DNA from: Planctomycetota bacterium
Lineage (GTDB): Bacteria > Planctomycetota > UBA8108 > SXIK01
Length of the DNA stretch: 64,000 bases
Direction of reading: 5' to 3'
NCBI GenBank assembly: GCA_965223845.1
Contig: CBDCXR010000004.1
Span: 2,464,001-2,528,000, forward strand
In this document: piece by piece, positions 3,580 to 33,969 of the stretch
How the letters are laid out: each line of letters opens with the position of its first letter
Numbering within the stretch: position 1 is the first letter of the stretch
The notes under the pieces: model-generated
Told to the model about the DNA's origin: nothing
Databases searched by the model: none
The model's input: only the letters and a program-made list of their open reading frames with translations
Translations under genes and position numbers: made by a program

Positions 3580-4659
3580 TCAGCGCTTCGGCGGCGCCGG
3601 AGAAGAGCGGGGTGGCGGTCGATTTCCCGCGCCGCGCCCGCGGTTTCGCTCCCGCATGAACGTCTCGGCGCAGCGATCGCCGCAGAAATAGAGAACGTTT
3701 CCACCGATCGCGAAGCGCACGGCCGAGTCGGGACTGTCGACGGTCTTCTTACAGCGCTGACAGGCGACGGGTCCGTCCCCTTCCTTCAGTTCTTCGGCGT
3801 TCGGCGGCAGCTCGAAAAACGCGGACGGGACTTCGCGCGTGACGAGACTCTTCACCTCGGCTTCGAGATCGTAGCGTGGGAGCGCCGTTACGACCGTGAT
3901 CTTCGCCTTGAGTGGCACGCCTTTCGCGCCTTCGATCTTCTCGAGCACTTCGTCCGAGAAGACGCCGAGCCGCCGGAAGAGATGGTAGTAGTTCTTCGCG
4001 CCGGGGATGTCCTCGGCGATCTGCGCGTCGATCACCGTGAGACAATTCTCTTTGACGACCAGGCGCTTACACACGCGGTTCAGAATCGTTTCTCCCGGGC
4101 TCGTCTCGACGGTGACGATTCGCTTTCGGTCGGGACGGAGATGGCAGTTGTCGGCGAACCACCGGTCGCGTTCGCGCCTCGTCATGCGCCGCGCGCGCTT
4201 GATCTCGTTCATCTCCGCGATCCGGCGCTCCTTCTGGAGCTCGTTCAGATCTTCGGTGTGCTCGGTGTAGAACCGGCCGTCGGCCGAGATGCGATAGACG
4301 CGCGGGGCGTTCCCATCCATCCGCAGGAGAATATGCTGCTTGAGGCGCGTCTTGCCGTTCCCCGCGGCTTCGAAATCCGCCATGTAGAGCTTCTCGCCCT
4401 TGAGATCGACGATCATGACCTGACGCGTCTCGCTCACGCGGCGCTCCGCACCCCGCCCGCTCGGCTCCCGGCGGATCTGCTCGATGACGAGCGCGGGCAC
4501 TTTCGGAAGCTCCTCGACCGCGTCGCGACCGGGCGGACGGAGAAGCCCGCCGGTCTGCGCGTGGGCGGCGGCCGTCACGGCGAGTGCGACCGCGATGAAC
4601 GCGAGTCGGGCGATCGCGCATCTCCCGCCGCGCGTAGTTCGGATCGTTCGCTCGATCAT
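3580..4659 (-). CDS. Secreted DUF4412-like protein with C-terminal YHS/TRASH-like Cys motif
   Basis: Signal peptide ending AAAHA-Q; GETILNRVCK and FFELP motifs typical of DUF4412-type proteins; C-terminal CQRC...YFCGDRC; start re-assigned to MIERT. Confidence 0.55.
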   Translation of the reverse strand: MIERTIRTTRGGRCAIARLAFIAVALAVTAAAHAQTGGLLRPPGRDAVEELPKVPALVIEQIRREPSGRGAERRVSETRQVMIVDLKGEKLYMADFEAAGNGKTRLKQHILLRMDGNAPRVYRISADGRFYTEHTEDLNELQKERRIAEMNEIKRARRMTRRERDRWFADNCHLRPDRKRIVTVETSPGETILNRVCKRLVVKENCLTVIDAQIAEDIPGAKNYYHLFRRLGVFSDEVLEKIEGAKGVPLKAKITVVTALPRYDLEAEVKSLVTREVPSAFFELPPNAEELKEGDGPVACQRCKKTVDSPDSAVRFAIGGNVLYFCGDRCAETFMRERNRGRGAGNRPPPRSSPAPPKR

Positions 4660-5165
4660 TTCCCGTACAACCTCTTCACTCGGTGCGAATTCCGCGGGTC
4701 CCGGGTCGAACCCACGTCGGAACCGTTCGACGCCGAGGAGCCGCTCGCCATTCACCGGGGGCGGAGAAGGCGGCTCCTGGGATCCCGTCCTCGGGGATCC
4801 TAACTCCGCGTGGCGTATGGCTCAACCAGCGAGCTCGGGCGAGCCGCGACCGGACGCGTTCCCCCTCGACGCTACGCAACTCGGCCGCCAGGGCCCGGCG
4901 ATACGGGGCTGGCGCGATCCTTGCGCTGCCCGAATAGCCCGAATAGAATCGATCCCGGCTCCACGGTTGGGGCCAGATTTGGGTCTTTCACCGCGTCTTG
5001 CATCACCACGATTCGACTCCATTCTGCAGCCTGGGGCGGAGAGGCCGCGATGAGCGGCTGAGGCAGGCGGCAGAAGGATGGGAGATCTTGCGGCCTCGTC
5101 TAGCGCGATGTCGCCGGTGCACCGCGGACAACGAGCGCTCTCCACGAGCGCGAGGGGAGAAACCG

Positions 5166-6350
5166 ATGGCTTCACTTGCCCGCAGCTCTGTCGCCCGTGC
5201 GTGCGCTCTTCTGTTCGGTTTGGCCGGGGTGGTTCTTCCGCAAGGCGTGGAAGCTCAGGATTCCGCCGATTGCGAGTTCGTGCGGGGGAATCTCGTCAAC
5301 CTCGAGGGGGACGAAGCCGACGTCGTGGTCGATCTCAACGACGCCGTCGATCTCGTCGCCTACCTCCTGATCTCGCGGAGCGTGCCGGTCTCGGGCTGCA
5401 AGGCAGCGGCCGACGTGAACGACGACGGTCTTCTCACGATGGCGGACTACACGTATCTCGTCGAGCACCTCTTCAATGACGGCCCGCCGCCGCCCGCGCC
5501 CTACCCGGAGCCGGGCGTCGACCCGACGGACGAGATCACGATCTCCGACGAGCGCGACGAGCGCTTCAGTCTCGCGATCGGAACGACCGCGGGGGCCGCA
5601 GGGAACACCGGCCTCTCCCTTCCGATTACGATCTCGAACTCCGTGCCGATTACGGGCCTCCAGATCGCGCTCACGTACGATCCGGCGCAGATTCGAATCG
5701 ACGAGATTCAGACGGAGGAAGAGACGCTTCTCTCTTCGGTGAGCGCCGAGTACATCACCGCGGAGTTTCACAACAACGAGGGCGTCGCGTACATCGCAGT
5801 CCTCAAGGACTTCGCGACGCCGTTCTACTTTCACACCGGTGAAGACCGCTTTCTCCCGGCCGGCGACGATCAGCTCGTCGCGACGCTCAAGTGCGCGCTC
5901 GTCTTCACGGCGGTGAAGGGATTCGCACCGATTCAATTCGCCGACGGCATCGGAGTCCCGAGCGGCGAGGTGCCGGCACCGCCGCCCGAGCTCGTCCCCG
6001 AGCTGCACACGTTCGTGTTCGACGGGACAACGCCGATTCGGCCGGTTCTCGGGACGGACGGCGGCATCGAGGTGCGCGAGAGCTTCATCCGCGGCGACGC
6101 GAACTTCGATCGCGTCGTCGATATCGCCGATCCGGTCTACAAGCTCAATTACATCTTCGGTGCCGGCCCCGCCCCGATCTGTCTCGACGCGGCAGACGCA
6201 AACAACGACACGGGAATCGACATCTCGGATCCGATCTGGCTGCTCAATTACCTCTTTAAGGGAGGGCCGCAGCCGCCCGAGCCGTTCCCGCAGCCCGGAG
6301 TCGATCCGTCGGACGACGGGAGCGGCAGCCTCGGCTGCGATATCGAGTAG
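5166..6350 (+). CDS. Secreted protein with dockerin-like / cohesin-like / dockerin-like architecture
   Basis: Signal peptide; FVRGN..DLNDAV..AADVNDDG and FIRGDANFD..DAADANND dockerin-type EF-hand repeats flank a beta-rich segment LPITISNSVPITGLQIALTYDP resembling cohesin. Confidence 0.7.
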   Translation: MASLARSSVARACALLFGLAGVVLPQGVEAQDSADCEFVRGNLVNLEGDEADVVVDLNDAVDLVAYLLISRSVPVSGCKAAADVNDDGLLTMADYTYLVEHLFNDGPPPPAPYPEPGVDPTDEITISDERDERFSLAIGTTAGAAGNTGLSLPITISNSVPITGLQIALTYDPAQIRIDEIQTEEETLLSSVSAEYITAEFHNNEGVAYIAVLKDFATPFYFHTGEDRFLPAGDDQLVATLKCALVFTAVKGFAPIQFADGIGVPSGEVPAPPPELVPELHTFVFDGTTPIRPVLGTDGGIEVRESFIRGDANFDRVVDIADPVYKLNYIFGAGPAPICLDAADANNDTGIDISDPIWLLNYLFKGGPQPPEPFPQPGVDPSDDGSGSLGCDIE

Positions 6351-6488
6351 CGAAGCTCTTCGCCGGGACTCGGTCCCGGCGGTTCGCCGAACCGCACGCC
6401 GCCCCCGCGTGGGCCGTGGCCGACGTGCCATGGATCCGCACGCGGAATCGGTCGCGGCCTCTCGTCCACCGTTTGGCCGCGCCGCGCT

Positions 6489-6902
6489 TCAGTCGGCGGT
6501 GATCGGATCGAGCTCGAAGGTGTAACCGGCGGTTCCCAGAATCCGCTGGACGCCGAGATTGAACCCGATGTTGCCGAGCGAGCGGCTCTCGGTGAGCTCG
6601 CCGTTCTCGACGACGAAGGCGTACGCACCGCCCCACGACGTGACGAAGCCCCGGCGTTCACGCTTCGCGTCGAGGATGAAGCGCGTACCGTCCGGATCGT
6701 CCTCGGTCGATCGTTTCTCGACAAATCCGACGTGCACGCGGTCCTTCTGCGTGCCGTCGACGACGACGTGGTAGAGGCGTTGGTACTCGGTGAAGAACAG
6801 CGGCTCTGCGCGGCCGGTCCGCGGCGACGGATCCTCACTCCACGCGCAACCGCCCGCGACCGACAACAAACCCACGAGTAGAAGACACCTCAATTCGCCC
6901 AT
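6489..6902 (-). CDS. Putative lipoprotein
   Basis: MGELRCLLLVGLLSVAGGC lipobox-like N-terminus; start re-assigned to 6902. Confidence 0.6.
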   Translation of the reverse strand: MGELRCLLLVGLLSVAGGCAWSEDPSPRTGRAEPLFFTEYQRLYHVVVDGTQKDRVHVGFVEKRSTEDDPDGTRFILDAKRERRGFVTSWGGAYAFVVENGELTESRSLGNIGFNLGVQRILGTAGYTFELDPITAD

Positions 6903-7341
6903 TGCGTGATCCTGATCGTTTTCGATTGGTCGTTGGAAGCTAAGATCCCGTCCAAGAAAGCAGGATTCGGCCGCGGAGCGGTTCTCGGACAGATTCCCGC
7001 GCTCGCGCGAAGGCGGGACGGCGCGGACGATCGAAGGGAGGACCCGAGTCGAGGCGCGAGAGCCGCACTCGCCTCTCGTACAGACTATCAGATGGCGGAT
7101 CGGAGAGCACTCCTCCCCTCGGGAACGGCGCATCTCCCAAACATGCCGCGAAGGCGAAGCGCCCCAGGTGGAGACGGCGAACCGCCGACGAGCCGGTAAG
7201 ACACCCCGGCTCAGCTTCGCGGATTCGACCTTCCCGGCACCGCGGTGAAGAACGCGCGATGTCCCTACCGATAAGGGGACTGACGCGGTGGTCTCTCTCG
7301 CCGGCGCGTCGCGTTTCCTCCCTCCCCCAGACGACGGCGAC

Positions 7342-8340
7342 ATGAGTTCGCACCGACGAGTCCGCCTCTCCATTCGCTCGATCGCTAGCGCGCCCGTTCG
7401 ACGCTGGTATGCGTTCGCTCCGGCGCTCGCGTTCGCTGGCGCCCTCGCGCTTTGGGCCCATCAGCTGGTGACGCAGCGCGCGCTGCCCCAGAGCCTCCCG
7501 GCGATCGCGGCGATCACCGCGTTTGCCGTGGTCGTCGGTGGCATCGTGAGCGTCGCGTGCGAATGGCCGAATCGCCTGCTCGTGTCTGCGGACGACTTCG
7601 AGCGAACTCTCGGCTGGGCGGTCGTCGGGGAACGGATCGATCGCGACGGCCACCGTCGGAGTGACGCCGATGCGATCGCTGCGTTCATCGACAACAACGC
7701 GGAACGCTACGAGATCCGCTCGTTCGCAGTGCTCGGCTGGGAAGGCGTCGACGTCGACTGGGTCTCGCGCGCAGGTCGGCAGCTCGCGGGTGAGAACCGA
7801 ACCGTGATCTTCGTCGACGCGAGCGGCGATCTCCAGCTCGGCGACCTCGCGGCACAAGAATCCCACACGAGCGAGGGACTCGTGCGCACGGCGGCGCGAA
7901 TGTTTCCTCGCGGCGAGCCCGACGAAGATCTGATCGCGGAGGCGCGCGAAATCCTCGCCGAACAACTCGTTGCGACGAGGGTCGACGGGATCCGGTGGCT
8001 CCCGCGCGGTGCGGGCACCGATTCCGTCTCCCCGGTCGCCGCGGACCGAATCGTCCGCGAGCTCAAGCGGCTCGCCGAGATCGTCCTCGTCGTTCTTCCG
8101 TCGTACCCGCGCGCATCGGTCGACGCGAGCATCGCCGCCGCCGGCGATGCCGTGCTCCTCGCGCTTCCCACGAATCGAGTTCGCGAGCTCGAGGTCTGGA
8201 CGCTCGAGGCTCGACTCCGATCGCTCGGCGCGAACGTCGCCGGAATCGTTCTCGACCACTCCCGCGAAGCACGCCCCCGCGTCTCCGCGCGCCGAACCGA
8301 AGCGCGCGAAGCCGCCGTCCACGGAGCTTTTCACGCATGA
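7342..8340 (+). CDS. Two-TM protein with degenerate Wzc/CpsD (BY-kinase/MinD-like) cytoplasmic domain
   Basis: Two hydrophobic segments, DDFERTLGWAVVG, RTVIFVDA, DAVLLAL and LRSLGANVAGIVL resemble CpsD/CapB; no intact Walker A. Confidence 0.5.
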   Translation: MSSHRRVRLSIRSIASAPVRRWYAFAPALAFAGALALWAHQLVTQRALPQSLPAIAAITAFAVVVGGIVSVACEWPNRLLVSADDFERTLGWAVVGERIDRDGHRRSDADAIAAFIDNNAERYEIRSFAVLGWEGVDVDWVSRAGRQLAGENRTVIFVDASGDLQLGDLAAQESHTSEGLVRTAARMFPRGEPDEDLIAEAREILAEQLVATRVDGIRWLPRGAGTDSVSPVAADRIVRELKRLAEIVLVVLPSYPRASVDASIAAAGDAVLLALPTNRVRELEVWTLEARLRSLGANVAGIVLDHSREARPRVSARRTEAREAAVHGAFHA

Positions 8341-9665
8341 ACGAACCGACTCCCGTCCTTACCTGGATCCCGGGCCGAACGGCCGAGTCGACGCGAGCAC
8401 CCCGCGTCGCTGCGCGCCCCTTTCCGCTGCGCTCGGAGCAGCCGACGGCCGCGCTCATCGAATCGGTGGCGCGGCGCGGACTCTTCGCCCCGCTCCTCGT
8501 GCGCCCACGCGGGGACGAATTGGAGATCGTGTGCGGATGGAAACGCTACCGTGCGGCCCTCGCGGCGGGCGTCGAGTGGATTCCCGCGCTCGTTCGAGCG
8601 ATGGACGACCTGGAGGCGGCGCGCTGCTACTTCGAAAGCAAGCTCACGCGGCGACCCATCGGCGTGGCCGCCCAAGAGGAGGCAGTGCGCGTGCTCCGGG
8701 AGGCGCGTGCGACCGGGGAATCGAATCGCCGTGCGGCCGCGGAATCGAGTGCTCACGAGTCGGGGCCCTCTCGAGGAGTCTCTCTCGCGGGAGACATCGA
8801 GGTCGACCGCGCGTTTGCGCAGTTCGCCGGGCGTGGATCGGGCCCGGCGTCCGGCCTCGCCGAAACCGGCTCTTCGCCGGCGCTCACCGAACAACGGCGG
8901 CGAGCTCAGAATCTTCTTCGGCGGACGGAGTCCCTCTTCGAAGAGGCGCTTCGCCGGAGAGCCCTCACTCCGGCTCGCGTCGAGAGCATCGTCGACGCTC
9001 TCATCGAGATGCTCGACGAGACTCCGAGCGCGACACCGGGTCTCATCCTCTCGGCGCGAGAAGGGAGTGACCCCACCGCTCTCCACTGCCTCCTCGTCGC
9101 GAGTCTCTGCTCCCTCTTCGGAAGGCGTCGCTACGCCGCGACGGACGAGAGGCTGCGCGATCTCATTCTGGGCGGGCTTCTCCACGACGTCGGGATGGTC
9201 TTCGTCCGGCGGGCGGCAATCGTCGACGATCCCGGCTCCGGCGATCCCGATCGTCAGTTCCTCAAAAGCCACACGCGCATCGGCCACGCTATCGTGTCCG
9301 CGACCCGAGCGTGGAACGACTCGGTTGCCGCGTGCGCGCGAGACCATCACGAGCGCGTCGATGGATCCGGCTATCCCGACGCCCTCCGCGCGGTCGAGAT
9401 CAGCGACGAGGCCCAGATCGTCGGCTTGATCGACAGCTACGCGACACTGATTAGTCCGCGGGCCCATCGCGCGCCGCTCTCGCGGCTGGAGGCGCTCGCT
9501 CGCCTCGAAGCTGCCGCGCGGGACGGGCGGTTCAGCCCGCGGTACGTCCAGGCGCTGAAGGCAGTTGCGGAGCCTGAAGGCCACACCGAGACCCCACCTC
9601 ATCCCGAAAATCTTCCGGAAAAACGGCTTGAGGAACCCGAAGATCTCGTTAAACTCCTCACTTGA
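8337..9665 (+). CDS. ParB N-terminal domain fused to an HD-GYP domain
   Basis: ATGA overlap with upstream gene; GLFAPLLVRP..EIVCGWKRYRAA (ParB box); LLHDVG, DHHERVDGSGYP (HD-GYP). Confidence 0.8.
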   Translation: MNEPTPVLTWIPGRTAESTRAPRVAARPFPLRSEQPTAALIESVARRGLFAPLLVRPRGDELEIVCGWKRYRAALAAGVEWIPALVRAMDDLEAARCYFESKLTRRPIGVAAQEEAVRVLREARATGESNRRAAAESSAHESGPSRGVSLAGDIEVDRAFAQFAGRGSGPASGLAETGSSPALTEQRRRAQNLLRRTESLFEEALRRRALTPARVESIVDALIEMLDETPSATPGLILSAREGSDPTALHCLLVASLCSLFGRRRYAATDERLRDLILGGLLHDVGMVFVRRAAIVDDPGSGDPDRQFLKSHTRIGHAIVSATRAWNDSVAACARDHHERVDGSGYPDALRAVEISDEAQIVGLIDSYATLISPRAHRAPLSRLEALARLEAAARDGRFSPRYVQALKAVAEPEGHTETPPHPENLPEKRLEEPEDLVKLLT

Positions 9666-10432
9666 GAGTTGGAGAGTTCGGGGGAATGTGTTGTTCGCGT
9701 CTCCGCCAGAGCTCTTTTCTCTTGGCATTCCGGGTGGAGCCATCTCTGGTTACCCGTCGCCAGTGAGCACCGAGGAGTTGGTGCCGGCGAGTTCGGGTCG
9801 GGCGGGTGTTCCTTTCCCGCTCTCCCCACCGGGCGTGCTCAGCGAATGGAAGTAGGAGATTGAGTTCTTCTCTCTGGTTCCCGCTAGGGACCCGGGACGA
9901 AGCACTCAACATGTGGTGTCTTGGCGATTCGGTCAGACTCCTCGACGCGGCGAGTTCGACATCGTCGGGTGCAATTCCCGTCGGCGAAGTGTCGAAGCGT
10001 CACTCGCGATCCGGTTGCCGCCGGTTCACGCACTATGCTGCGCGTAGAGAGTCCCGTCCGGCTCGCTAGGTGGTTGGTCTCACACGATTCACACTCTCGA
10101 GACTTCGCGCTCTCGCGCCGGAGATGAGCGTTTGCCCGTGGGAACGCACTTCGAATTGGCGCAGACGTGAACGAATCGCGCCGGTGAACGTGGAGTCACA
10201 GCTGAGGAGGAGAAGCTGTCCGCCGCAGAGTCTCGATCGAGAGGACTTCGTGAGTCTTTCGCGAAGTTCGACCGGCCGGGTTTTCCGCGGCGAGTGCCGG
10301 AGGATCGCGCCCATGGCGCGGCGTCTGGAATCAATCCGCTGAACAAGTTCGTTTTCCGCGCGGGGCGACGCCGTTCGGAACGAACCCAGGCCGCGCCGAC
10401 GCAGCGGAGCGGCTCGAAGGGGGAAGTCGAGA

Positions 10433-11161
10433 ATGTTAGCCAACGTGCCGAGGAGCGTGCTCGAAGAGCTGACGGTCCGAGACCTCGAACAGCTTCTCGA
10501 GTGGAAAAAGAGGAATACGTCCATCGGTGATCTGCTCCGGGAACGAGACCGACTGCGTCTCGAGCTCCGGCGGGTCGAGGACGAGATCGAAGCCCTGGAA
10601 AAGGAAGATCGAGAAACGCGCGAGCGAGAGCAGACCGAGAACGGCGGTCCGGAGACGAGCTTCCTCGCCGGCAAGCGAAAGAAGAACCTGAAGGATTACA
10701 TCGCGCAGGTTCTCCTCGAAGCGGGCGAGGCTCTCTCCCCGTCCGAGATTCAAAAGCGTCTCCCGGGGGCCGGCTACCAGTCGAGCTCGACGAACCCGCG
10801 GTCGTTCTACAACACCGTCTTCCAGGCGCTCCAGCGCTACGACGCGTTCTACAAGGAGGGGAAGAAATACGCGCTCGCCGATCACGCCTCCGAACGCGCG
10901 ACGACGGCGGCGAACATCCTCCCGAAGAACAAGACTCGCTTGAAAGACTACATCGTCGACGTGCTGAGTAAGGCGCCCAGCCCGCTCAAGGTCTCCGAGA
11001 TCTCGAGTCGAGTCGTGATCGAAGGCTACGAAACCGATCTCGCGATGGACGAGCTCACGCAGCGCGTCTCGGCTACGCTCAAGAAGTACCTGAACAAGGA
11101 CTTCGACTGGGACAGCCAGCGTTACCGGCTCGCCGAGCGGACGGTGGGCGTCGCGACCTAG
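10433..11161 (+). CDS. Putative DNA-binding protein: N-terminal coiled coil plus two winged-helix repeats
   Basis: Purine-rich RBS; repeats KKNLKDYIAQVL..LSPSEI..GY and KTRLKDYIVDVL..LKVSEI..GY, each ending in a wing-like KY/RY.LA. Confidence 0.7.
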   Translation: MLANVPRSVLEELTVRDLEQLLEWKKRNTSIGDLLRERDRLRLELRRVEDEIEALEKEDRETREREQTENGGPETSFLAGKRKKNLKDYIAQVLLEAGEALSPSEIQKRLPGAGYQSSSTNPRSFYNTVFQALQRYDAFYKEGKKYALADHASERATTAANILPKNKTRLKDYIVDVLSKAPSPLKVSEISSRVVIEGYETDLAMDELTQRVSATLKKYLNKDFDWDSQRYRLAERTVGVAT

Positions 11162-11600: not shown

Positions 11601-11678
<78 letters not shown>

Positions 11679-13971: not shown

Positions 13972-15186
13972 ATGGCGAATCCTGAGCATGTCGCGAAGCT
14001 GAAGAAGGGGGTGAAGGCTTGGAATGCGTGGCGGGAGGAGAATCCGGAGGTTCGGCCTGACCTTAGCGGCGCGGACCTCCGCGGCGCGGACCTCCGCGGC
14101 GCGGACCTCCGCGGCGCGGACCTCCGCGGCGCGGTCCTCAACGACGCGAACCTCGGCGGCGCGGACCTCCGCGGCGCGGTCCTCAGCGACGCGGACCTCA
14201 GTGGCGCGATCCTCAGCGGCGCAAACCTCAGCGGCGCGACCCTCCCCAGCGCGGACCTCCGCATCGCGGGCCTCCGCAGCACGAACCTCAGCGACACGAT
14301 CCTCAGCGACGCAAACCTCAGCGACGCAAACCTCGGCGACGCAAACCTCGGCGGTGCAAACCTTAGCGGCGCAATCGTCTGCCGCGCGGACCTCAGCGGC
14401 GCAAACCTCGGCTTCGCTAATCTCTACCGCGCAGACCTCAGCGAATCGAAGCTTGGCCACGCGAAACTTTGGTCGACAATCTTTGCCGAGTGCAATCTCT
14501 CATCGACCACCGGCCTCGATTCGGTCGCTCATTGGGCGCCAAGCACGATCGGCCTCGACACACTCCAGCGCTCCGGCTCGCTTCCGGAAGTGTTCCTGAG
14601 AGGCTGCGGCTACTCGAAGTGGCACGTGGAGATGGCCAAGCTCCACGACTCGAATCTCTCCGCCCACGAGATCTCGGAGATCACGAACTCCATTTTCCTC
14701 GCACGCGTCGAAGGCCCGCTCTACCTCGGCGGCTTTTTCATCTCGTACTCGCGCGACGATGGCGAGCTCGCCGAGAAGCTGCGCGTTTCGCTAATCGAGG
14801 CTGACGCGTCGGTATGGATGGACGTACACGATGCGGTTGGTGGCCCACTCGAGCGTCAGATCGTCGACGCGGTTCGGCTGAACGACATCGTGCTGCTCGT
14901 TCTTTCCGAGCGATCGGTGAACAGCGAGTGGGTCGAAGGAGAGCTCCGCACGGCGAACCGGAAGGCGAAGGAAGAGAAGCGGGACGTGATCCTGCCGATC
15001 GCTCTCGACAAGTCGTGGGAACCGAAGGTCGAAGCGGAGCCGGTGCTCTGGCGGCAGGTTCAGCGGTGCAATGTGCTCGACTTCTCGGAGTGGCAAGATT
15101 CGGCGAAGTTCAGCGAGCAGTTCGAGAAGGTGCTCGCTGGCGCGAAGCGGTATTACGCGCCGAAGGCGAAGGAGACAGCCCCATGA
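13972..15186 (+). CDS. Pentapeptide-repeat plus C-terminal TIR domain protein
   Basis: MANPEHVAKL..GVKAWNAWR N-terminus, A(D/N)LxG repeats, TIR motifs FFISYSRDD, LVLSERSVNSEWVEGEL, ILPIALD. Confidence 0.9.
   Translation: MANPEHVAKLKKGVKAWNAWREENPEVRPDLSGADLRGADLRGADLRGADLRGAVLNDANLGGADLRGAVLSDADLSGAILSGANLSGATLPSADLRIAGLRSTNLSDTILSDANLSDANLGDANLGGANLSGAIVCRADLSGANLGFANLYRADLSESKLGHAKLWSTIFAECNLSSTTGLDSVAHWAPSTIGLDTLQRSGSLPEVFLRGCGYSKWHVEMAKLHDSNLSAHEISEITNSIFLARVEGPLYLGGFFISYSRDDGELAEKLRVSLIEADASVWMDVHDAVGGPLERQIVDAVRLNDIVLLVLSERSVNSEWVEGELRTANRKAKEEKRDVILPIALDKSWEPKVEAEPVLWRQVQRCNVLDFSEWQDSAKFSEQFEKVLAGAKRYYAPKAKETAP
14066..14134 (+). repeat. Perfect 15-bp tandem repeat (GCGGCGCGGACCTCC)x4+ encoding GADLR
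   Basis: Directly visible in sequence. Confidence 0.85.
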
Positions 15187-25859: not shown

Positions 25860-26030
25860 GATTCTTGGAAGATCAAAGTAAAAGATGAGCCTCATCTCTG
25901 GCGCCAAGTGCGTAAGGCCAACGTGCTCGACTTCTCGAATTGGGAGGCGCGGTTCGCAGAGCAGTTCAAGGAACTCGTCAAGTCCGCGAAGCTGTACTAC
26001 GCACCGAACGCGAAGGAACCGACGTCGTGA
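25860..26030 (+). pseudogene. 3' fragment of a second TIR gene
   Basis: DSWKIKVKDEPHLWRQVRKANVLDFSNW..YYAPNAKE aligns with KSWEPKVEAEPVLWRQVQRCNVLDFSEW..YYAPKAKE of 13972-15186. Confidence 0.85.
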
Positions 26031-26473
26031 CCTGGTCCACCGACCGAAAGATCCTGAACCTCCACCGCGATCTCGGGATCGAACAGCAAGAACTCGCCGA
26101 GCTAGCCGGCATCACGCCGTCGGCGACGTCGGAAATCGAGAGGATGGAGTTTGGCCGGAATCCGCGGGCCGAGGTGCTGCGCGGCGTCGCTCGAGCGCTG
26201 TGGGTGACGGCGGACTACCTGCTTGAAGAGAGCGCGCCCTACCCTCCGACGGTTGGGGAGGATGCTCCGAAGGTCGAGCGGCCGAGGGAGATGGTTGAGA
26301 TGCGGGCGTCGGCCGAGGGGCGGGCGCACTTACGGGCTATGCGGAACCGACCGGTCGAGGCTCTTCGCGTGGCGAGGGCGGTTTTGGCGGCTGGTGAGCG
26401 GGGGCTGGTTGGTGGGGTTCGAGCGTTGGGCGAGAAGGGAACGAACGATGCCAGAGAAGGAAACGGGCCGTAG
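26027..26473 (+). CDS. XRE-family HTH regulator (copy 2)
   Basis: GTGA overlap with the TIR fragment; RKILNL..GIEQQELA..ARALWVTADYLL..APYPP.VGED nearly identical to copy 1. Confidence 0.8.
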   Translation: MTWSTDRKILNLHRDLGIEQQELAELAGITPSATSEIERMEFGRNPRAEVLRGVARALWVTADYLLEESAPYPPTVGEDAPKVERPREMVEMRASAEGRAHLRAMRNRPVEALRVARAVLAAGERGLVGGVRALGEKGTNDAREGNGP

Positions 26474-27896
26474 ACGCGGCGACAGCTTCATGCCGTTCGC
26501 ACTGGGCGTGCTGACGGCTCTTCTCGTTGGAGTGCCGTTCACGATCTTCGGGCTGCACTTCCTGCGAGACAACGTGACGATGCTCGCAGTCGTCGCGGCG
26601 ATTTGCCTCGTGCTGTGCGGTCTCGTGTTCGCGTTCGTCTACGTGTTTCGCGAACGGATCTTCAATTGGTTCGGCGATCGCATGGGGCGCGGGGTCGTCG
26701 ACGTTCACCAGGCCGTGTCGGACGCAGTCGGTGACGTGGTGAACGGTGAATACAAGGCCGCAGCTCGCAAGGTCGACGTCGCGGCCGGCAGGTTTCTCAC
26801 GGCGTTCGCGTGGTTTCGGGCGCGGCAATTCCTTCTCATGGCGACCGTTGGGACGTGCGGAGCGTTTGCCGCTCTGATCGCCGATACTCTCCTCTTTCGG
26901 CAGAATGAACTGGTCGGAAAGCAGAACGGTCTTATCGAGCTCCAGAACAACACGCTCCTCGGACAGACGCGGCTGCTGGATATGCAGACGCAGTTCGCGA
27001 TCCGGCAGACGAGCCTGCTCGACGCACAAAATGTGCTGATCGAGGAACAGAACAAAGCGTTGCAGGATCAGCTGAAACAATTCGAGGAGCAGGACTATCG
27101 GGCGCGTAAAGCCCAGCTGGTTGCGACGCTGTACGACACGGAGGAATCGGGGCCGTTCGGTTTTCCCGGCCCAAAGGCGAGCGTTCGGGCCCGGGCGGAG
27201 GCAGCGAAGGCGCTTGTGGAGATCGAGAGGGGGCGCGACGACAGTGCGGATCTCTCGAATGCCGATCTGTCGGGTGCGAACCTCAGCGGCGCGAACCTCA
27301 GCGGCGCGAACCTCAGCGGCGCGAAACTCAGCGGCGCGAAACTCAGCCGAGCCGACCTCAGCGGCGCGAAACTCAGCGGCGCGGACCTCTTCCGCGCGAA
27401 TATGGAGGCAGCGAACCTCAGCGGCACGGACTTAGACAGAGCGGACCTCAGAGACGCGATCCTCTTCGAAGCGAATCTCAGCGACTCGACCCTCGCCGAA
27501 GCGGACCTCAGCGGCGCGATTCTCGTCCAAGCGGCCCTCGAAGGCGCGAAGTTACACCGCGCAGACCTCAGCCGCGCGAATCTCTCAGGCGCGATTCTCC
27601 GCCACGCGATCCTATCCACGGCGACCCTCAGCGAAGTGGACCTCGATGCGGCGGACCTCAGCGACGCGACTCTCGTCGAAGCGAACCTCAGCGGCGCGAA
27701 CCTGAAATCCGCGAGCCTCATCAGGGCGGACCTCAGTCGAGCGAACCTTCGCGGCGCGAATCTCAGCCCGCTAACACGGTATAGAGAATCAATCTGGGCC
27801 GGCGCCAACATCACGGGAATTAAGGACCCACCCGAGGGCCTCGCGGGGCATGCGCTGTCGCAAGGGGCCATCGCGGGCGCGACGGACGAGGAGTGA
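26448..27896 (+). CDS. Membrane protein (3 TM, coiled coil) with pentapeptide repeats
   Basis: Hydrophobic segments, QN-rich coiled coil, about 35 A(D/N)LS-type pentapeptides; start re-assigned to MPEKE. Confidence 0.85.
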   Translation: MPEKETGRRRGDSFMPFALGVLTALLVGVPFTIFGLHFLRDNVTMLAVVAAICLVLCGLVFAFVYVFRERIFNWFGDRMGRGVVDVHQAVSDAVGDVVNGEYKAAARKVDVAAGRFLTAFAWFRARQFLLMATVGTCGAFAALIADTLLFRQNELVGKQNGLIELQNNTLLGQTRLLDMQTQFAIRQTSLLDAQNVLIEEQNKALQDQLKQFEEQDYRARKAQLVATLYDTEESGPFGFPGPKASVRARAEAAKALVEIERGRDDSADLSNADLSGANLSGANLSGANLSGAKLSGAKLSRADLSGAKLSGADLFRANMEAANLSGTDLDRADLRDAILFEANLSDSTLAEADLSGAILVQAALEGAKLHRADLSRANLSGAILRHAILSTATLSEVDLDAADLSDATLVEANLSGANLKSASLIRADLSRANLRGANLSPLTRYRESIWAGANITGIKDPPEGLAGHALSQGAIAGATDEE

Positions 27897-27904
27897 ACAC
27901 TTCG

Positions 27905-28021
27905 ATGAAGACGAAGACCAAAGCCAAGCTCGCCCTCTGGCTGCTAAAGCACCGGAAGTGGCTAGTTCCGGCGGGGATTGTGATTGCGGCGGGCGTAGTT
28001 TGGTGGGTCTGGGGGCGTTAG
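27905..28021 (+). CDS. 38-aa membrane peptide (copy 2), absent from ORF track
   Basis: MKTKTKAKLALWLLKHRKWLVPAGIVIAAGVVWWVWGR; GAGGAG upstream. Confidence 0.7.
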   Translation: MKTKTKAKLALWLLKHRKWLVPAGIVIAAGVVWWVWGR

Positions 28022-28113
28022 CGTCGGCCAGCCTGAGGATCGACCGGCGGCGGCAGGAAACTCAGAACAGCCGCGATTCGTCGGGACCTGGAAGAACCCG
28101 TGCGGAATCGAGA

Positions 28114-28154
28114 TTGATTCGACTCCCCCACGTCGCCTACCGTGAGTAGGTCGT
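28114..28154 (+). promoter_or_regulatory. Repeated promoter-like element (copy 1)
   Basis: TTGATT-18bp-TACCGT followed by GAGTAGGTCGT. Confidence 0.45.
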
Positions 28155-28613
28155 CACCGGTGGTGCTGGTTGGGCTCCGGGAGGTAGGCAGCTGTGAATT
28201 CTCGCTGTGGCGGCAACGCCTGCGGCGTTGTCGCCGGGGTGCGTACGCGTCGCAGGCTTTACGATCGTCTCAACGCGATTCGCCGAGCTATCGACGGCGG
28301 GCGACTACAGTCGCTCCGCGGCGCGAATGGAGGGCGAGAGCGCTCGAGCGATTCCTCTCCGCATCCGCTCACCGCTACGAGCGTCGAAGAAGCGGTCGAC
28401 AAGGCCTCGACACCGCCGAAGGCGCGATCGCGCTCGTTGACGGATCGATCTCTTTCGATTGGTGGCGGATTCCGAACGCCTTCGGCCAACCGGCCTACAC
28501 GTTCGAGGCTGAGGTTCTGATCGGCTCAGGCGCGCCCCCCTGCGCGTCGCCCTCGTCCGAGGTGAGTAAACCCTTACGGGTGGTCCTTGCGATTAGATTA
28601 GTGGTTATCATTT

Positions 28614-29345
28614 ATGAACGAAAAACTCTCTCGTTACTACCGAAGCGCTATTGGGAAAGGTGTCTGGATCGTCACATTTTGCGGCGTGTTCATCGCCCTA
28701 ACCGCGGAGAGACTTTCCGGCATCATCGGGCGCGACAATATCGCAATTGACCTCCTACGTAGCCTACTTTCGATGGCCGTCGTCGCTACGGTATTTCTTT
28801 TTTTTGAGAAGCAGGTTCGCACGCGATTATGGAAACACGCCTACCCCGAGCTCGATGTCTCCGGGAACTGGACGGGCGAAACGACGTATCAAATCCAGCA
28901 GATTCCCGAAGAGGGAAAGAAACCAGAGGATTACGAGCCCGAGACAGTCGATCACAGAATTGAATTCGACCAAACCTGCCTAACGCTAAAGGTCAAACCG
29001 ACCCTCGTAAAAGACTATCCGGGCGCATGGTACTCCCTTGTGGCCGGCTTCGAGGGAAATGAATTACGCTATGCTTATCAAGTAAACTATGGCAACGCTC
29101 CAAATCGACCGGAAAGCGCGACGGGGTACGAACAGTTACAGCTCATGGGCACGGAAGATGGAAAATCTCCGGCACAACTAACGGGAACTTTTTGTCATTG
29201 TGCGTGGGGACAACGGCCCGTCTATAGCGGCACGGTGACGTTTCGCCGGCAGCCGCCGCGCGAGGACCGAAGAGGAGTCTTTTCGCGCACGTGGACGATC
29301 TGCGTGGGACTGTTTGCCAAGTTTCTGAAGCCACGAGTGGATTAG
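28614..29345 (+). CDS. Cap15-like 2TM beta-strand-rich effector (S-2TMbeta)
   Basis: Two N-terminal TMs, LWK..PELDVSGNWTG, IEFDQT, LRYAYQ, TGYEQL, LTGTF..GTVTFRR. Confidence 0.65.
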   Translation: MNEKLSRYYRSAIGKGVWIVTFCGVFIALTAERLSGIIGRDNIAIDLLRSLLSMAVVATVFLFFEKQVRTRLWKHAYPELDVSGNWTGETTYQIQQIPEEGKKPEDYEPETVDHRIEFDQTCLTLKVKPTLVKDYPGAWYSLVAGFEGNELRYAYQVNYGNAPNRPESATGYEQLQLMGTEDGKSPAQLTGTFCHCAWGQRPVYSGTVTFRRQPPREDRRGVFSRTWTICVGLFAKFLKPRVD

Positions 29346-29349
29346 TTCT

Positions 29350-30132
29350 ATGAATGCACGCAAGCCTCCGTGTCGCTCCGATCTACGCGGCGTTCTGATT
29401 ACCGGCGCCGCTTCGAGCATTGGGCGGCACGTGACGGAAAGGCTCGTAGGGCATGACGACCTTCAGTTCGTTCTCACCAGCAACAAATCGACCGTCACGA
29501 AGGAAATTACGGCCCGGCCCAACGTTGAGGCACGGGGCGGACTCGACTTGACACATCCAGGCTCTCTTGCAGTTCTGCGAGAGTGCTCCGAAAAATGTTT
29601 CGATGGACCGTTCGGCCTTGTGCACAGCGTTGGCGACTTTTGGTGCCATCGAATGATATCGGAGGTTTCCGTTTCAGAGGCTGCCAAGATGATGTCGAGC
29701 CACTATACGACTTTGTATGGAGTCCTCCACACTCTCCTCCCCGTCATGAAGAAACTCGGAGGTGGGCGCGTTCTGGCTTTTAGCTGCACTTCGGTTGGCT
29801 TCAACTATCCCGAGATGGCAGCGTTTACGAGTGCAAAGGCGGCTGTCGAAGCGCTAGTTCGGTGCGTCGCCAATGAATGGGGAGGCTTCGGGATCGCTGC
29901 AAACAGTATCGCCCTGTCCACCGTGGACACGCCTGACGTGCGGAAGACCAAGCCTCTCGCCAACATGGAAAACTACCTTTCTGCTCAAGAGATCGGCGTT
30001 TTGGTCGAGGACATCCTGCTGGCGTCAGGTCCGTATTTAAGCGGCAACGTCGTCAGACCACTCAAGTATTCGAAGACTTTTTATGGTCACGCATACTTTG
30101 CGAGAAACCCACCGTCGACTTGCAATGAATAG
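29350..30132 (+). CDS. Atypical SDR-family oxidoreductase
   Basis: LITGAASSIG Rossmann motif, VHSVG, GGGRVL; FTSAK in place of catalytic YxxxK. Confidence 0.85.
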   Translation: MNARKPPCRSDLRGVLITGAASSIGRHVTERLVGHDDLQFVLTSNKSTVTKEITARPNVEARGGLDLTHPGSLAVLRECSEKCFDGPFGLVHSVGDFWCHRMISEVSVSEAAKMMSSHYTTLYGVLHTLLPVMKKLGGGRVLAFSCTSVGFNYPEMAAFTSAKAAVEALVRCVANEWGGFGIAANSIALSTVDTPDVRKTKPLANMENYLSAQEIGVLVEDILLASGPYLSGNVVRPLKYSKTFYGHAYFARNPPSTCNE

Positions 30133-30242
30133 CCGGTGCTGCTGTCGAGTGGCCAAAGGATTGAAGCGCGGTCGACCTCACAACACCCGGCGGCAATTTC
30201 CTTGAAACGGCTCACCGCTCGTGCAGACCAGAGGAGAAGCCG

Positions 30243-30283
30243 TTGACGCCCCCGACTCGCCTCCTCTACCGTGAGTAGATCGT
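30243..30283 (+). promoter_or_regulatory. Repeated promoter-like element (copy 2)
   Basis: TTGACG-18bp-TACCGT followed by GAGTAGATCGT. Confidence 0.5.
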
Positions 30284-30302
30284 AGGCATCGATCAAAGAC
30301 CG

Positions 30303-30575
30303 ATGAGTGAACGCGTCACCAAAAGATTGGTGAAAGGAGGGTTGCTGGGCTCCTGCGTTGCGCCCGCACTCCTGGTCACCTTCGGGGCGATTTGCGGCTA
30401 CGCCGGCGGGACGAAGATGTTCGGTTCGTGGGGCGGCGGCTCCCCGCCGGGAACGTTCCAGGCGGCGTACAGTGGTGCCCTCTTGGTGACACTCGCCTTT
30501 GGCCTGCCGGTCGCCGGTATCGGCTTGGCAGTCGGAGCTGCCATCGCCTACAGGACTCGCTCGCGCAGTCGATGA
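30303..30575 (+). CDS. Small two-TM membrane protein
   Basis: 90 aa with two hydrophobic segments, downstream of the promoter-like element. Confidence 0.55.
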   Translation: MSERVTKRLVKGGLLGSCVAPALLVTFGAICGYAGGTKMFGSWGGGSPPGTFQAAYSGALLVTLAFGLPVAGIGLAVGAAIAYRTRSRSR

Positions 30576-30713
30576 TTTCTCAGCGATCGGCGCACGTTGA
30601 CGACGGTCGATTCCACCGGCCGAGAGGCACCGTGCCTCCCGCGCCCACAACTGCACGCCTCGCCAAGCCCCCTCGGCTGGGTCTTTTCGCGAAACGAAAC
30701 AACGAGCTCGGAC

Positions 30714-30941
30714 ATGAGTGACTCGAAAGCCCCCTCGGCATTTCAGTTTCCGGGCACGCTCCCGGGCATCGTGTTGCTGGTCTGGGCCGTCTCGTTCTCG
30801 TTGTTCAAATCCGACATTCCATCTACGGTCTTCTGGTTGGTGTTCGTTTCGGTGTCTCTCTTGATCGTCCTCGTTCCGAGTTGGCTAGCGGGGCAACGGG
30901 CTAAGCGGACCTACCTCGAGAAATCGGGGTCGCCCGAATAG
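30714..30941 (+). CDS. Small two-TM membrane protein
   Basis: MSDSK start, two hydrophobic segments. Confidence 0.55.
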   Translation: MSDSKAPSAFQFPGTLPGIVLLVWAVSFSLFKSDIPSTVFWLVFVSVSLLIVLVPSWLAGQRAKRTYLEKSGSPE

Positions 30942-31159: not shown

Positions 31160-31666
31160 TCACACCAGTCCCTCAAGCTGCCCCTCCTCGAGATTCGAAT
31201 AGAACTCGATTTCGTTGCGAGGAGTGGACTGCACGGTTTGGTAGGAAGGGAAGTAACCCGTCGGTCGCAGCTGGAAGCGGGAAAACGTCGCGAGGATCGC
31301 CGATCTTCTCCGGCGAAGGTAGCTCACCAGCAGGGGCTGATCGAAGTCGTTCTGGCTGAGCAACCGGAGCGCGGAAAAGAGCTGAGAGAGCGAAACTCGA
31401 AAGAACGGCGGATCGCAGAGAATCAGGCCGAACTTGCGCCCGGTCCACTCGGGACGGTGGATGTCGAATCTGCGGAACCCTGGAAGACTCGCGAATCGAT
31501 CATCGATGTCGAGAATCGAGACCTCGACGTTCGACTCGACCAGTCGCTTCCCGAGAAGAGGCGCGCAGAGCAAACACGGCGAGGCCCACCCTCCGACGAA
31601 CGCGGCCAGTCGGTCCAGAGTGGCGGCGTCGAAGAAGTATTGCTCGTTCTCGTGGAGTTCGTACAT
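31160..31666 (-). CDS. EEF1AKMT1/N6AMT2-like (DPPF) methyltransferase
   Basis: EQYFFD..T..LA, LLCAP, LDIDDRF, FRRFD, ILCDPPFF. Confidence 0.65.
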   Translation of the reverse strand: MYELHENEQYFFDAATLDRLAAFVGGWASPCLLCAPLLGKRLVESNVEVSILDIDDRFASLPGFRRFDIHRPEWTGRKFGLILCDPPFFRVSLSQLFSALRLLSQNDFDQPLLVSYLRRRRSAILATFSRFQLRPTGYFPSYQTVQSTPRNEIEFYSNLEEGQLEGLV

Positions 31667-31794
31667 TGAGAACTGGCGGCTACGGGTGGAGCCAACCACA
31701 AAACGGGTGGCGGTAGTTCATGATCCTCTGCATCCCGAACAAGGACAAGTGCTGGCGTCGAGTGCTCGACGCTGCCGATTAGAGGTCGAATCCG

Positions 31795-33969
31795 ATGAAC
31801 GAGTATCGCGTGTCCGCGATCGTGCTCTCCGTGTACGCCGCGCTGAGCGCATCCGCTCTGGCCGTCGAGATTGACCTCTCGCGCTTCCGCTCCGATGGCC
31901 CCGTCGCCGTGGAAAGGACTGAGCGCGGCCTCACCGCACGCTGGCCGATGGATCACGGCGAATCGGGTCACTTGACGCTCGACCTCAAGTCGCCCGAATC
32001 ATTGATCGAGTCTCTCGCGATTTCGCCAGACCGCGAGGGAAACTCGACGACCGTACTCTCTCGGATCGCACCCGCGACAACCCTGACGATCGGGCAACGA
32101 AACCTCGAGCGGAACGGGTGGACGATCTTCTTCGACAAGGTTCACACTCGACCGCACGAAACTCATCTCGTGCAGTTGGATCCGCAGCGCGTCCGGGTCG
32201 AAAGCGTCGGTGAGGACCGTGTTCGAATCCGCATCGACAAACTGTCCGCGGCGTCGTTCGAGGGAGAGCTCGTCTTCACTCTCTACCCAGGCAGCCGCTT
32301 GATCCACGTCGAGAGCGTGCTCACCACGAATGAGGACGCCCGCGCCATCGTCTACGACGCCGGTCTGGTCGGATCGTTCACCACGCCGAAGGCCCGCATA
32401 GGTTGGATGGCAACCGGCGGTGAGATTCGCCGCCGGAGCGTCGACCCGGACGCCGTGTCCACTCCGCTCGCCGTTCGCCATCGCGCGATCGTCGCCGAAA
32501 GCGGCGCGGGATCTGTCGCGGTGTTTCCCCCGCCTCACCAGTACTTCTATCCGCTCGACTTTTCCGACAACCTCGAATTCGTCTGGTACGGAGCGAGCCA
32601 TCGCGGAGTCGAGGATCGGTTCGGAATCGGCATCCGCCACCGGTTGGAGGGCGATCGGCGCTTCGTGCCCTGGTTCAACGCGCCTCCCGGAACGAAGCAG
32701 CGACTCGGCGTGTTCTACTTGCTTTCGCGCGGCGACACGGCGGTAGCCCTCGAGGAGGTAAAGCGCTACACCCGCGGCGATCGCTTCAAGCGCCTTCCCG
32801 GCCACGTGACCTTCTCGAGCCACTATCACGTCGAGCACACCACCGACCTCATTCGGCGACAACCGCCGGGATTCGAGCTCACCGAGGACACCGTCGACGA
32901 TGTGAAGATCCCCTCTGATCTCGAGCAACCCGGTTTCGTGAAGGTCTTTCGCGAAATGGGAGTCGACATCGTCCATCTCGCCGAGTTCCACTTCGGCCGA
33001 ACTCCGCGACTTTCGGCATCGGAGCGGTTGCCTCAGCTCGAGCTCATGCATCGCGAGTGCGCGCGTCTCTCCGACGATGGCTTCCTGCTCCTCCCGGGCG
33101 AGGAGCCGAACGTTCACTTCGGCGGGCACTGGATCAGCTTCTTTCCGAAGCCGATATTCTGGATCCTCAATCGCCCAGAAAGAGCGCCGTTCGTCGAGAC
33201 GCATCCCCGCTACGGATCCGTGTACCACGTCGGCAGCGCCGAAGACGTTCTCGCGCTTCTCGAGCGCGAGCGCGGCCTCGCGTGGACGGCGCACCCGCGC
33301 ATCAAGAGCTCGACCGGCTATCCCGATCGCTACCGCACGCGGGACTTCTACCGCTCCGATCGCTTTCTCGGCGCGGCTTGGAAAGCGATGCCCGCAGATC
33401 TTTCGTGGCCGAGGCTCGGAACCCGCGTCCTCGATCTCCAGGACGACATGGCCAACTGGGGAGGGGAGAAGTACATCCTCGGCGAGGTCGACGTGTTCAA
33501 GGTCAACCCGAACCACGAGCAGTACGCCCACATGAATATCAACTACCTGAGGACTTCGAAGGTTCCTCGGTTCGAAGACGGGTGGGCGACGATTCTCGAT
33601 CTCTTGCGCCGGGGCGAATACTTCGTCACGACCGGCGAGATCCTCATTCGCCAGTTCACGATCGACGGCAAGGAAAGCGGAGAACGATTGAGCCGCGATC
33701 GACCCGAGCGATCGAAGGTGTCGATCGATGTCGAGTGGACGTTTCCGCTCGCGTTCGCCGAGATCATCAGCGGCGACGGGGAGCGAACCCACCGTCAGCG
33801 AATCGACCTCACCGACACGCGTCCTTTCGGAGAACGCACGCTCGAGTTCGCCGCCCCGCTTCGCGGACGACGATGGGCGCGCGTCGAGGTATGGGACATC
33901 GCCGCGAACGGGGCGTTCACTATGCCGGTCTGGATCGGTGAGACGACTCCGGCGGACGCGCGGGATTGA
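31795..33969 (+). CDS. Secreted protein with C-terminal PHP-like metallohydrolase domain
   Basis: Signal peptide; SHYHVEH, LAEFH, PGEE..GGH, TAHP motifs; C-terminal WARVE..AFTMPVW. Confidence 0.6.
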   Translation: MNEYRVSAIVLSVYAALSASALAVEIDLSRFRSDGPVAVERTERGLTARWPMDHGESGHLTLDLKSPESLIESLAISPDREGNSTTVLSRIAPATTLTIGQRNLERNGWTIFFDKVHTRPHETHLVQLDPQRVRVESVGEDRVRIRIDKLSAASFEGELVFTLYPGSRLIHVESVLTTNEDARAIVYDAGLVGSFTTPKARIGWMATGGEIRRRSVDPDAVSTPLAVRHRAIVAESGAGSVAVFPPPHQYFYPLDFSDNLEFVWYGASHRGVEDRFGIGIRHRLEGDRRFVPWFNAPPGTKQRLGVFYLLSRGDTAVALEEVKRYTRGDRFKRLPGHVTFSSHYHVEHTTDLIRRQPPGFELTEDTVDDVKIPSDLEQPGFVKVFREMGVDIVHLAEFHFGRTPRLSASERLPQLELMHRECARLSDDGFLLLPGEEPNVHFGGHWISFFPKPIFWILNRPERAPFVETHPRYGSVYHVGSAEDVLALLERERGLAWTAHPRIKSSTGYPDRYRTRDFYRSDRFLGAAWKAMPADLSWPRLGTRVLDLQDDMANWGGEKYILGEVDVFKVNPNHEQYAHMNINYLRTSKVPRFEDGWATILDLLRRGEYFVTTGEILIRQFTIDGKESGERLSRDRPERSKVSIDVEWTFPLAFAEIISGDGERTHRQRIDLTDTRPFGERTLEFAAPLRGRRWARVEVWDIAANGAFTMPVWIGETTPADARD

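Follow-up and report, generated by a model that had tools for sequence, protein, structure and literature searches.

The question raised by positions 28614–30132 of the stretch examined here – a 64,000-nucleotide window of the genome of a Planctomycetota bacterium – is what a predicted membrane protein resembling the Cap15 effectors of bacterial immunity is doing next to a member of the short-chain dehydrogenase/reductase (SDR) superfamily with an altered active site. Gene 1 (28614–29345, + strand) is an open reading frame (ORF) with an ATG start and encodes 243 residues, with two transmembrane (TM) helices, a beta-barrel and a short C-terminal helix in an AlphaFold2 (AF2) model. Its TAG stop is followed by a spacer of 4 nt (29346–29349, + strand) and then by the ATG of gene 2 (29350–30132, + strand), which encodes an SDR-fold protein of 260 residues belonging to a distinct subfamily. 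This arrangement is as an earlier note on the sequence described it. That note called gene 1 an orphan, a label that misleads, since a partner gene is conserved beside it. The two genes are best explained as one horizontally acquired operon, inherited and transferred as a unit, and the pair has the look of a cell-suicide or anti-phage module not described before.

A scan of one genome per species with an alignment pattern of the SDR returned 36 loci, 32 of them true members of the subfamily. In 25 of these 32, a homologue of gene 1 lies directly beside the SDR gene on the same strand (18 upstream of it and 7 downstream). A scan of metagenomes with the SDR returned 62 loci, 56 of them true members, and 33 of the 56 were paired with a barrel gene on the same strand; when metagenomes were scanned with an alignment for gene 1 (A6) instead, no locus was confirmed. 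Clustering at 95% identity reduces the 88 loci to 78 clusters, of which 53 have the pair, 14 have an ABC ATPase gene directly upstream of the SDR gene in place of the barrel gene (ABC-linked), 3 have neither although the contig leaves room on both sides, and 8 are cut by contig ends. The ABC-linked SDRs form a separate clade (support 0.985), so that in the clade to which the window belongs the SDR gene is paired with a barrel gene at 53 of the 56 assessable non-redundant loci. By their record titles, the carriers belong to at least 11 phyla, across which the linkage is near-obligate.

The estimated intergenic gap is between −26 and +53 nt in 24 of the 25 foreign genome loci, and at 15 loci the genes overlap. 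The inverted gene order is confined to one clade (14 of its 15 tips) and arose essentially once, which argues for selection on the linkage. Protein distances of the two families are correlated (Mantel r 0.61, with none of 2000 permutations as high; n = 24, two truncated loci dropped), and five sister pairs are common to both trees, one of them consisting of the window and a Cyanobium metagenome-assembled genome (MAG). There is no third gene family conserved beside the pair, and no cyclase family recurs there. Chance adjacency of the two genes was rejected as a reading. The idea put forward in the earlier note withstood two of the three refutation checks proposed there, on recurrence of the pair and on descent from a CBASS/Pycsar operon.

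The three exceptions in the clade of the window include L074 and L050/L051. In L050/L051, a different multi-TM protein is encoded upstream of the SDR. In L074 (549–1346), an ORF for an insertion sequence-type transposase lies directly upstream of the SDR gene, at the place expected for the barrel gene. In L032 (5888–6408), from an Akkermansiaceae MAG, the SDR is in two fragments next to an intact barrel gene. L074 and L032 show signs of decay of some copies.

The distribution of the pair is sporadic. Its family was found in none of 60 relatives of the source genome, and a family search of 400 other genomes from the order of one carrier also returned none, leaving the seed genome as the only carrier. 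The composition of the pair is foreign to its surroundings, and the claim that it is richer in AT than its flanks holds: its GC content is 0.542, compared to 0.631 for the window as a whole, which is the lowest value among 1250 sliding windows of the same length and is equalled only by the window at 28601. GC content at third codon positions is 0.588 in gene 1 and 0.623 in gene 2, compared to 0.714–0.788 in six large ORFs nearby. Sporadic spread and foreign composition together fit a mobile, accessory element.

The protein encoded by gene 1 has hydrophobic segments at residues ~11–38 and ~42–68 (28644–28817, + strand), in which 19-residue Kyte-Doolittle averages exceed 1.4 and which are flanked by lysine and arginine. 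Four lysine or arginine residues are among the first 16, and another four are in residues 65–84. This pattern, combined with the hydrophobicity, indicates an N-in, C-in topology with both termini in the cytoplasm. The AF2 model calculated from a 73-sequence alignment (A2) has a mean per-residue confidence (pLDDT) of 94.4 and a predicted template modelling score of 0.86; it was used in place of a poor model from the single sequence (pLDDT 50.1). The modelled helices span residues 3–38, 43–51 and 54–76, with a C-terminal helix at 223–237, and the strands lie between residues 84 and 212 (28863–29249, + strand). The barrel is predicted to be cytoplasmic and to have about eight strands.

An exhaustive HMMER search extended the family of gene 1 to 125 representative clusters at E ≤ 1e-3; a word-indexed search found two relatives only. 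The family has its own invariant residues: W73, just before the barrel, and W86, Q120, Y155, G171, G191 and G206. The C-terminal helix beyond the barrel is present in the closest relatives of gene 1. Pfam, NCBIfam and PADLOC contain no model that matches gene 1, a sequence search of the PDB found nothing at E ≤ 10, and the family profile found a sole PDB match, 6oe6, at an E-value of 0.32. One other protein, P0188, of 2143 residues, has 14 distinct segments that match residues 76–131 of gene 1 (E 1.5e-11). Repeats of the barrel's first hairpins may make up this protein, or the match may be an artefact of composition.

Kinship with Cap15 emerges in comparisons of whole families. An hhalign comparison of the 73-sequence family alignment with 36 proteins carrying the Cap15 domain PF18153 – full-length proteins grown from one seed, and so representing one narrow Cap15 subclade – gave a score of 35.1 (P 1.4e-4, probability 53%) over 131 collinear columns. 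The match runs from the end of TM2, with a juxtamembrane LWK/LWR motif, to the last strand. Controls scored lower: 19.6 for the reversed alignment, at most 17.7 for twenty column shuffles and 17.0 for an unrelated alignment. Hidden Markov models (HMMs) gave weak but collinear matches in both directions: the model of the gene 1 family reached 20.7 bits on PF18153 proteins, and that of Cap15 reached 16.8 bits on members of the gene 1 family, compared to 1.1 bits or less for SDR controls. In an Atlas language-model search with the whole of gene 1, 25 of the 30 nearest clusters carry PF18153 or PF23471 (scores 0.94–0.95), and with the barrel alone (residues 72–220) 22 of 30 matches are PF18153 clusters. 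The kinship is drawn from these three kinds of comparison and not from Pfam membership. They give moderate support to the view that gene 1 encodes a divergent member of the S-2TMbeta superfamily, which contains Cap15, OptE and PanE, lying outside the current Pfam model. The label 'Cap15-like' given to gene 1 in the earlier note therefore stands as a statement of distant homology, and does not stand as a PF18153 match or as a Foldseek match.

Cap15 itself was looked for in several sets of genomes. PF18153 matched nothing at E ≤ 10 across the source genome, and nothing in five carriers of the SDR subfamily (four with the pair and one of the ABC-operon type). The only PF18153 match among 401 genomes from a single class was at L038 (1010–1842), a truncated Cap15 encoded by an ORF of 118 residues without TM helices. 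This ORF overlaps the end of another, of 168 residues, which is possibly a cyclase fragment, and the locus looks like a decayed cyclic oligonucleotide-based antiphage signalling system (CBASS). The truncated protein served only as a seed.

Gene 2 is an SDR by fold, with matches to PF13561 (2.1e-20, 73.8 bits against a cut-off of 27) and PF00106 (9.5e-18, 64.8 bits against a cut-off of 26.6). Among PDB entries, it is most similar to hydroxyacyl-CoA dehydrogenase and to reductases of the FabG type (1e-20 to 1e-22). Its subfamily is sharply bounded – ca. 79 clusters score at least 136 bits, and the next scores 62 bits. The gene call deposited for gene 2 (P0004) has 147 residues, 57% of the ORF. 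This call is probably truncated at an internal methionine, since homologues cover 94–98% of the 260-residue ORF.

The two unusual motifs that had been pointed out in gene 2, FTSAK in place of YxxxK and TGAASSIG in place of TGxxxGxG, are both present, reading AAFTSAKAAVE and ITGAASSIG in context, and they belong to the whole family rather than to this protein. Residues were counted in 104 distinct sequences of the subfamily, with the positions of the catalytic tetrad assigned from an alignment to PDB 2et6. In the active-site stretch from C146 to K163 (29785–29838, + strand), the position of the catalytic Tyr is Phe (Phe159) in 104 of 104, that of the catalytic Ser is Cys (Cys146) in 99 of 104, and Lys163 is retained in all 104. 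The position of the catalytic Asn (120) is Leu in 49 sequences, Thr in 11, and otherwise residues such as Ile or Val; it is Asn in none. In the glycine-rich cofactor loop (T18–G25; 29401–29424, + strand), the family pattern is TGxxSxxG: G19 is present in 97 sequences, S22 in 99 and G25 in 95, and the classical middle Gly, at position 23, is present in none, being replaced most often by D (44), E (33), A (9) or H (6). Other residues of the dinucleotide-binding type are kept (D66 in 98, T194 in 102 and R45 in 87). The subfamily also has conserved residues of its own, H92, H100, H118, C146, Y249 and R252, and motifs of its own, HSVGxFWxH and a C-terminal YSxxFYxxxYFxRN.

Gene 2 has thus lost three of its four redox residues and kept residues of the type that holds a dinucleotide cofactor, which indicates that it does not encode an ordinary dehydrogenase. 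Its conservation pattern is that of an old, constrained, non-classical SDR and not of a decayed copy. A recent inactivating mutation was rejected as an explanation, the changes being family-wide.

The ABC-linked sister clade of this Tyr-to-Phe subfamily never has the barrel gene. It was found at six genome loci (L016, at 2011–10690, L022, L023, L025, L029 and L033) and nine metagenome loci (L047, L064, L072, L077, L081, L082, L085, L088 and L091). In these loci, the SDR gene is 3' of genes for a binding-protein-like protein (445 residues), a permease-like multi-TM protein of 536 residues without a Pfam match, and an ABC ATPase. On its 3' side are translationally coupled genes for proteins without Pfam matches, either multi-TM proteins of 252–404 residues or proteins of 1074–1313 residues. 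This looks like an undescribed type of operon.

Several known systems resemble the pair in part. According to the Panoptes paper (PMC12657218) and the PanDA preprint (10.64898/2026.08.10.743972), Cap15, OptE and PanE are ligand-gated membrane disruptors, each encoded beside the synthase of its own ligand, which is a CD-NTase for Cap15 in CBASS, a minimal CRISPR polymerase (mCpol) for OptE in Panoptes, and a minimal diadenylate cyclase (DAC) for PanE in PanDA. The characterised 2TM-beta relatives permeabilise the inner membrane once they have oligomerised. The structure of YaCap15 is cited in the preprint as PDB 7N34. Cap15, which is covered by PF18153 (Cap15_CD_rec) and PF23471 (Cap15_TM), shares with gene 1 two N-terminal TM helices, a cytoplasmic beta-barrel of ca. 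130 residues joined directly to TM2, and a profile alignment whose columns stay in the same order from TM2 through to the final strand. The S-2TMbeta class was reportedly defined by Burroughs et al. in 2015, and the structure of Cap15 is said to have been reported by Duncan-Lowey in 2021. Gene 1 differs from Cap15 in that it falls below every Pfam and PADLOC threshold, has its own invariant residues, has the extra C-terminal helix in its closest relatives, and adjoins an SDR-fold gene rather than a CD-NTase or another second-messenger synthase.

The closest parallels in organisation are the two-gene systems. Like the pair, Panoptes (OptS-OptE; PMC12657218) is a stand-alone operon of two genes, one for a small enzyme-like protein and the other for a 2TM-beta-barrel effector. 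The partner in the pair is a Rossmann-fold SDR and not a minimal CRISPR polymerase, and a cyclic dinucleotide is not to be expected from it. Panoptes also often adjoins CBASS, according to the same source, whereas no CBASS was seen beside the pair loci or in the source genome. PanDA (PanS-PanE) has the same two-gene logic, with a minimal diadenylate cyclase and a 2TM-beta protein, and it shows (10.64898/2026.08.10.743972) that unrelated ligand-producing partners have repeatedly recruited 2TM-beta effectors. The pair differs from PanDA in the fold of the partner and in the probable class of ligand, and PanE is found by the standard S-2TMbeta models while gene 1 is not. Literature searches aimed at a pairing of Cap15 with an SDR found none in print.

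Gene 2 has in common with classical SDRs (PF00106/PF13561, FabG-like) the Rossmann domain, the two outer loop glycines, Asp66, Lys163 and Thr194. Its subfamily differs from them in the loop, which reads TGxxSxxG instead of TGxxxGxG, and in the tetrad, in which Asn-Ser-Tyr-Lys has become (Leu/Thr)-Cys-Phe-Lys. PDB 3i4f, deposited as a 3-oxoacyl-acyl carrier protein reductase, also has Phe at the position of the catalytic Tyr (SAFAAAK), but its similarity to gene 2 is that of SDRs in general (1.3e-20) and it lies outside the subfamily. NmrA and HSCARG are non-catalytic SDR-fold sensors of NAD(P)(H) that keep dinucleotide binding and lack the catalytic Tyr. Their likeness to gene 2 is one of idea only, and a sensor role for gene 2 is hypothetical.

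The preferred reading, held with a confidence that stops a little short of even, is that the pair is a conflict module with an effector under the control of a ligand of the pyridine-nucleotide type, which would be supplied, modified or reported by the SDR-like protein. Gene 1 would provide a two-pass membrane anchor with a cytoplasmic barrel as the receptor for a small ligand, and its action as an effector would follow that of its homologues. Gene 2 would stand where the related systems have a CD-NTase, mCpol or minimal DAC, and its product would bind NAD(P)(H), or make or hold a derivative of it. The state of the ligand, or of an SDR-ligand complex, would determine whether the barrel protein is inert or membrane-disrupting, and disturbance of the ligand by phage or another stress would lead to abortive infection or growth arrest. 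The control could be either ligand-ON, as in Cap15, or ligand-OFF, as in Panoptes, and the data fit both. A more specific claim is put forward as a tentative possibility, one that is rather doubtful as it stands: the pair would add a fourth class to the immune modules with a 2TM-beta-barrel protein, one in which a redox-dead SDR has replaced the cyclase and the effector is gated by NAD(P)(H) or a derivative in place of a cyclic oligonucleotide.

The proximity of defence genes bears on this reading. Among 114 neighbouring ORFs, of which 20 were mapped individually, the Pfam tallies are of housekeeping and restriction or integrase genes, and the PADLOC tallies include parts of type I restriction-modification systems, specificity subunits among them, AbiEii and candidate systems. 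At least 6 of the 25 genome loci have a strong match to a defence or candidate-defence gene within three genes of the pair. These matches are a type I restriction endonuclease (L019), a type I methyltransferase (L021), a mad3-like ATPase (L017), PDC-S28 (L004), PDC-S20 (L002) and PDC-S01 (L028). As a raw count without a background comparison, this proximity is suggestive.

A number of observations weigh against a conflict module built on a Cap15-like effector. The hhalign probability is just 53%, with a Cap15 alignment from a narrow subclade. Neither PF18153 nor PF23471 matches the protein of the window at E ≤ 1; among the 73 family members, PF18153 matches none at E ≤ 0.1 and PF23471 matches two (best 0.015). 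PADLOC matches neither gene. In a Foldseek search of the PDB, gene 1 had no match at E ≤ 1e-3 and Cap15 was absent from the 50 matches listed, the best of which were generic eight-stranded barrels (NHBA C-domain, TbpB, lipocalins, nitrobindin and avidin). On the side of gene 2, cofactor binding is read from motifs, and the acidic residue found at the middle-Gly position in 77 of 104 sequences could disfavour the binding of pyrophosphate. The existence of a sister clade in ABC operons suggests small-molecule handling, and not immunity, for the wider subfamily. Most neighbours of the pair are housekeeping genes, such as those for Met-tRNA synthetase, aldehyde dehydrogenase, P-type ATPases and MatE, and searches of plasmids, phages and viral contigs found no copy of the pair. 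Every locus was collected by way of its SDR gene, and the pairing counts are accordingly per SDR gene and not per barrel gene.

Many of these observations are also what would be seen if the pair were not immune at all. A membrane-anchored, lipocalin-like barrel could act on a small molecule (a lipid, quinone, cofactor or compound taken up from outside, for instance) together with an enzyme or binding protein of SDR fold, in an accessory metabolic or stress function that is horizontally mobile by happenstance. The lipocalins, nitrobindin and avidin among the best Foldseek matches listed are ligand-binding eight-stranded barrels, 14 of the 70 assessable clusters belong to the sister SDR clade with its operons resembling those of ABC transporters, and the prevalence of housekeeping neighbours and the lack of PADLOC matches and of phage or plasmid copies all fit such a function. 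The conserved H92, H100, H118, C146, Y249 and R252 of the SDR could form a new active site. This explanation is unlikely, though it deserves to be weighed seriously, for the profile and language-model signals are specific to Cap15-family barrels and not to lipocalins. There is no conserved metabolic neighbour, the pair is very sparse (absent from the 60 and the 400 relatives searched), at least 6 of 25 loci are near restriction or candidate defence genes, and three of the four redox residues have been lost.

A further rival explanation is a pair that operates without a diffusible signal, in the manner of a toxin and antitoxin. The SDR-fold protein would bind the barrel directly and keep it inactive, and loss or titration of the SDR would free a membrane toxin; the trigger could be a shut-off of host synthesis or a change in cofactor occupancy. 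Tight coupling of the genes for translation, with an order that can be swapped, is as expected for such a system, as are the co-evolution of the proteins (the Mantel correlation above), the stand-alone two-gene unit without a third partner, and an enzyme-like partner with degenerate catalytic residues. This rival is nevertheless distinctly improbable. Each of the three relatives that have been characterised uses its barrel as a receptor for a small molecule (PMC12657218 and 10.64898/2026.08.10.743972), and the strongly conserved cofactor residues and the cluster of His, Cys, Tyr and Arg suggest more than a scaffold. Contact between the two proteins is hypothetical: a predicted complex of the barrel (residues 68–243) and the SDR scored 0.00 in a run without controls, which speaks neither for nor against it.

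That the pair is the decayed remnant of a CBASS, Pycsar or Panoptes system, which has lost its cyclase and has an unrelated SDR beside it by chance, would fit a Cap15-like gene 1 with no cyclase beside it or elsewhere in the genome, but is so improbable that it was rejected, being contradicted by the recurrence of the two families side by side at 53 of 56 assessable non-redundant loci in many phyla with congruent trees, by the lack of any cyclase family recurring there, and by ORFs that are both intact and full length relative to their homologues. The statement that no nucleotidyltransferase is visible is borne out: none lies beside the pair, and PF18144 (SMODS) has no match at E ≤ 0.01 in the genome, which is 91.7% complete.

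A genomic island around the pair, as the earlier note had assumed, is plausible. There is a tRNA-Asp gene at 11601–11678, the GC content is 0.57–0.60 across 15–25 kb of the window, and several ORFs in the region around the pair have no Pfam family. At the edge of the lower-GC stretch, just past the tRNA-Asp gene and 14 kb 5' of the pair, is a gene (13972–15186, + strand) for a protein of 404 residues with pentapeptide repeats (PF00805, 1.2e-46) and a C-terminal TIR_2 domain (4.8e-21). TIR domains in bacterial immunity are NAD-consuming or signal-making.

Directly 5' of the pair, at 25940–27896 (+ strand), are two overlapping ORFs with putative starts. The first (25940–26473) encodes an XRE-type helix-turn-helix protein similar to RstR (3.5e-7), and the second (26223–27896) a protein of 557 residues that combines TM segments and a coiled stretch with an extended domain of pentapeptide repeats (PF00805, 5.4e-50). 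On the 3' side are a gene at 31160–31699 (− strand) for a protein of the PF10237 'probable N6-adenine methyltransferase' family (3e-14) and a gene at 31795–33969 for a CehA/McbA-like metallohydrolase of 724 residues (2e-13, under the family cut-off). Homologues of the XRE ORF and of the TM-pentapeptide protein do not recur beside the pair at other loci, and neither do the PF10237 protein and the CehA/McbA-like gene. PADLOC matched none of six proteins around the pair. A scan of 27800–30800 for promoters and terminators found nothing above chance. The sequencing runs that contain the region of the pair are four DNA runs from one study, and no RNA run is listed.

Whatever its function, the pair brings together two uncharacterised families – a divergent Cap15-like family of 125 representative clusters and an SDR clade with an invariant Tyr-to-Phe change – that are both missed by the current models of PADLOC 2.0 and Pfam, in a compact two-gene system that is open to direct testing. 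If the pair is indeed a fourth class in which NAD(P)(H) or a derivative gates the effector, membrane-disrupting abortive infection would be tied directly to the pyridine-nucleotide pool, which is contested by phages and by other defence systems. A partner from the dehydrogenase superfamily would extend the 2TM-beta effectors, known with three unrelated cyclases, to a different ligand chemistry.

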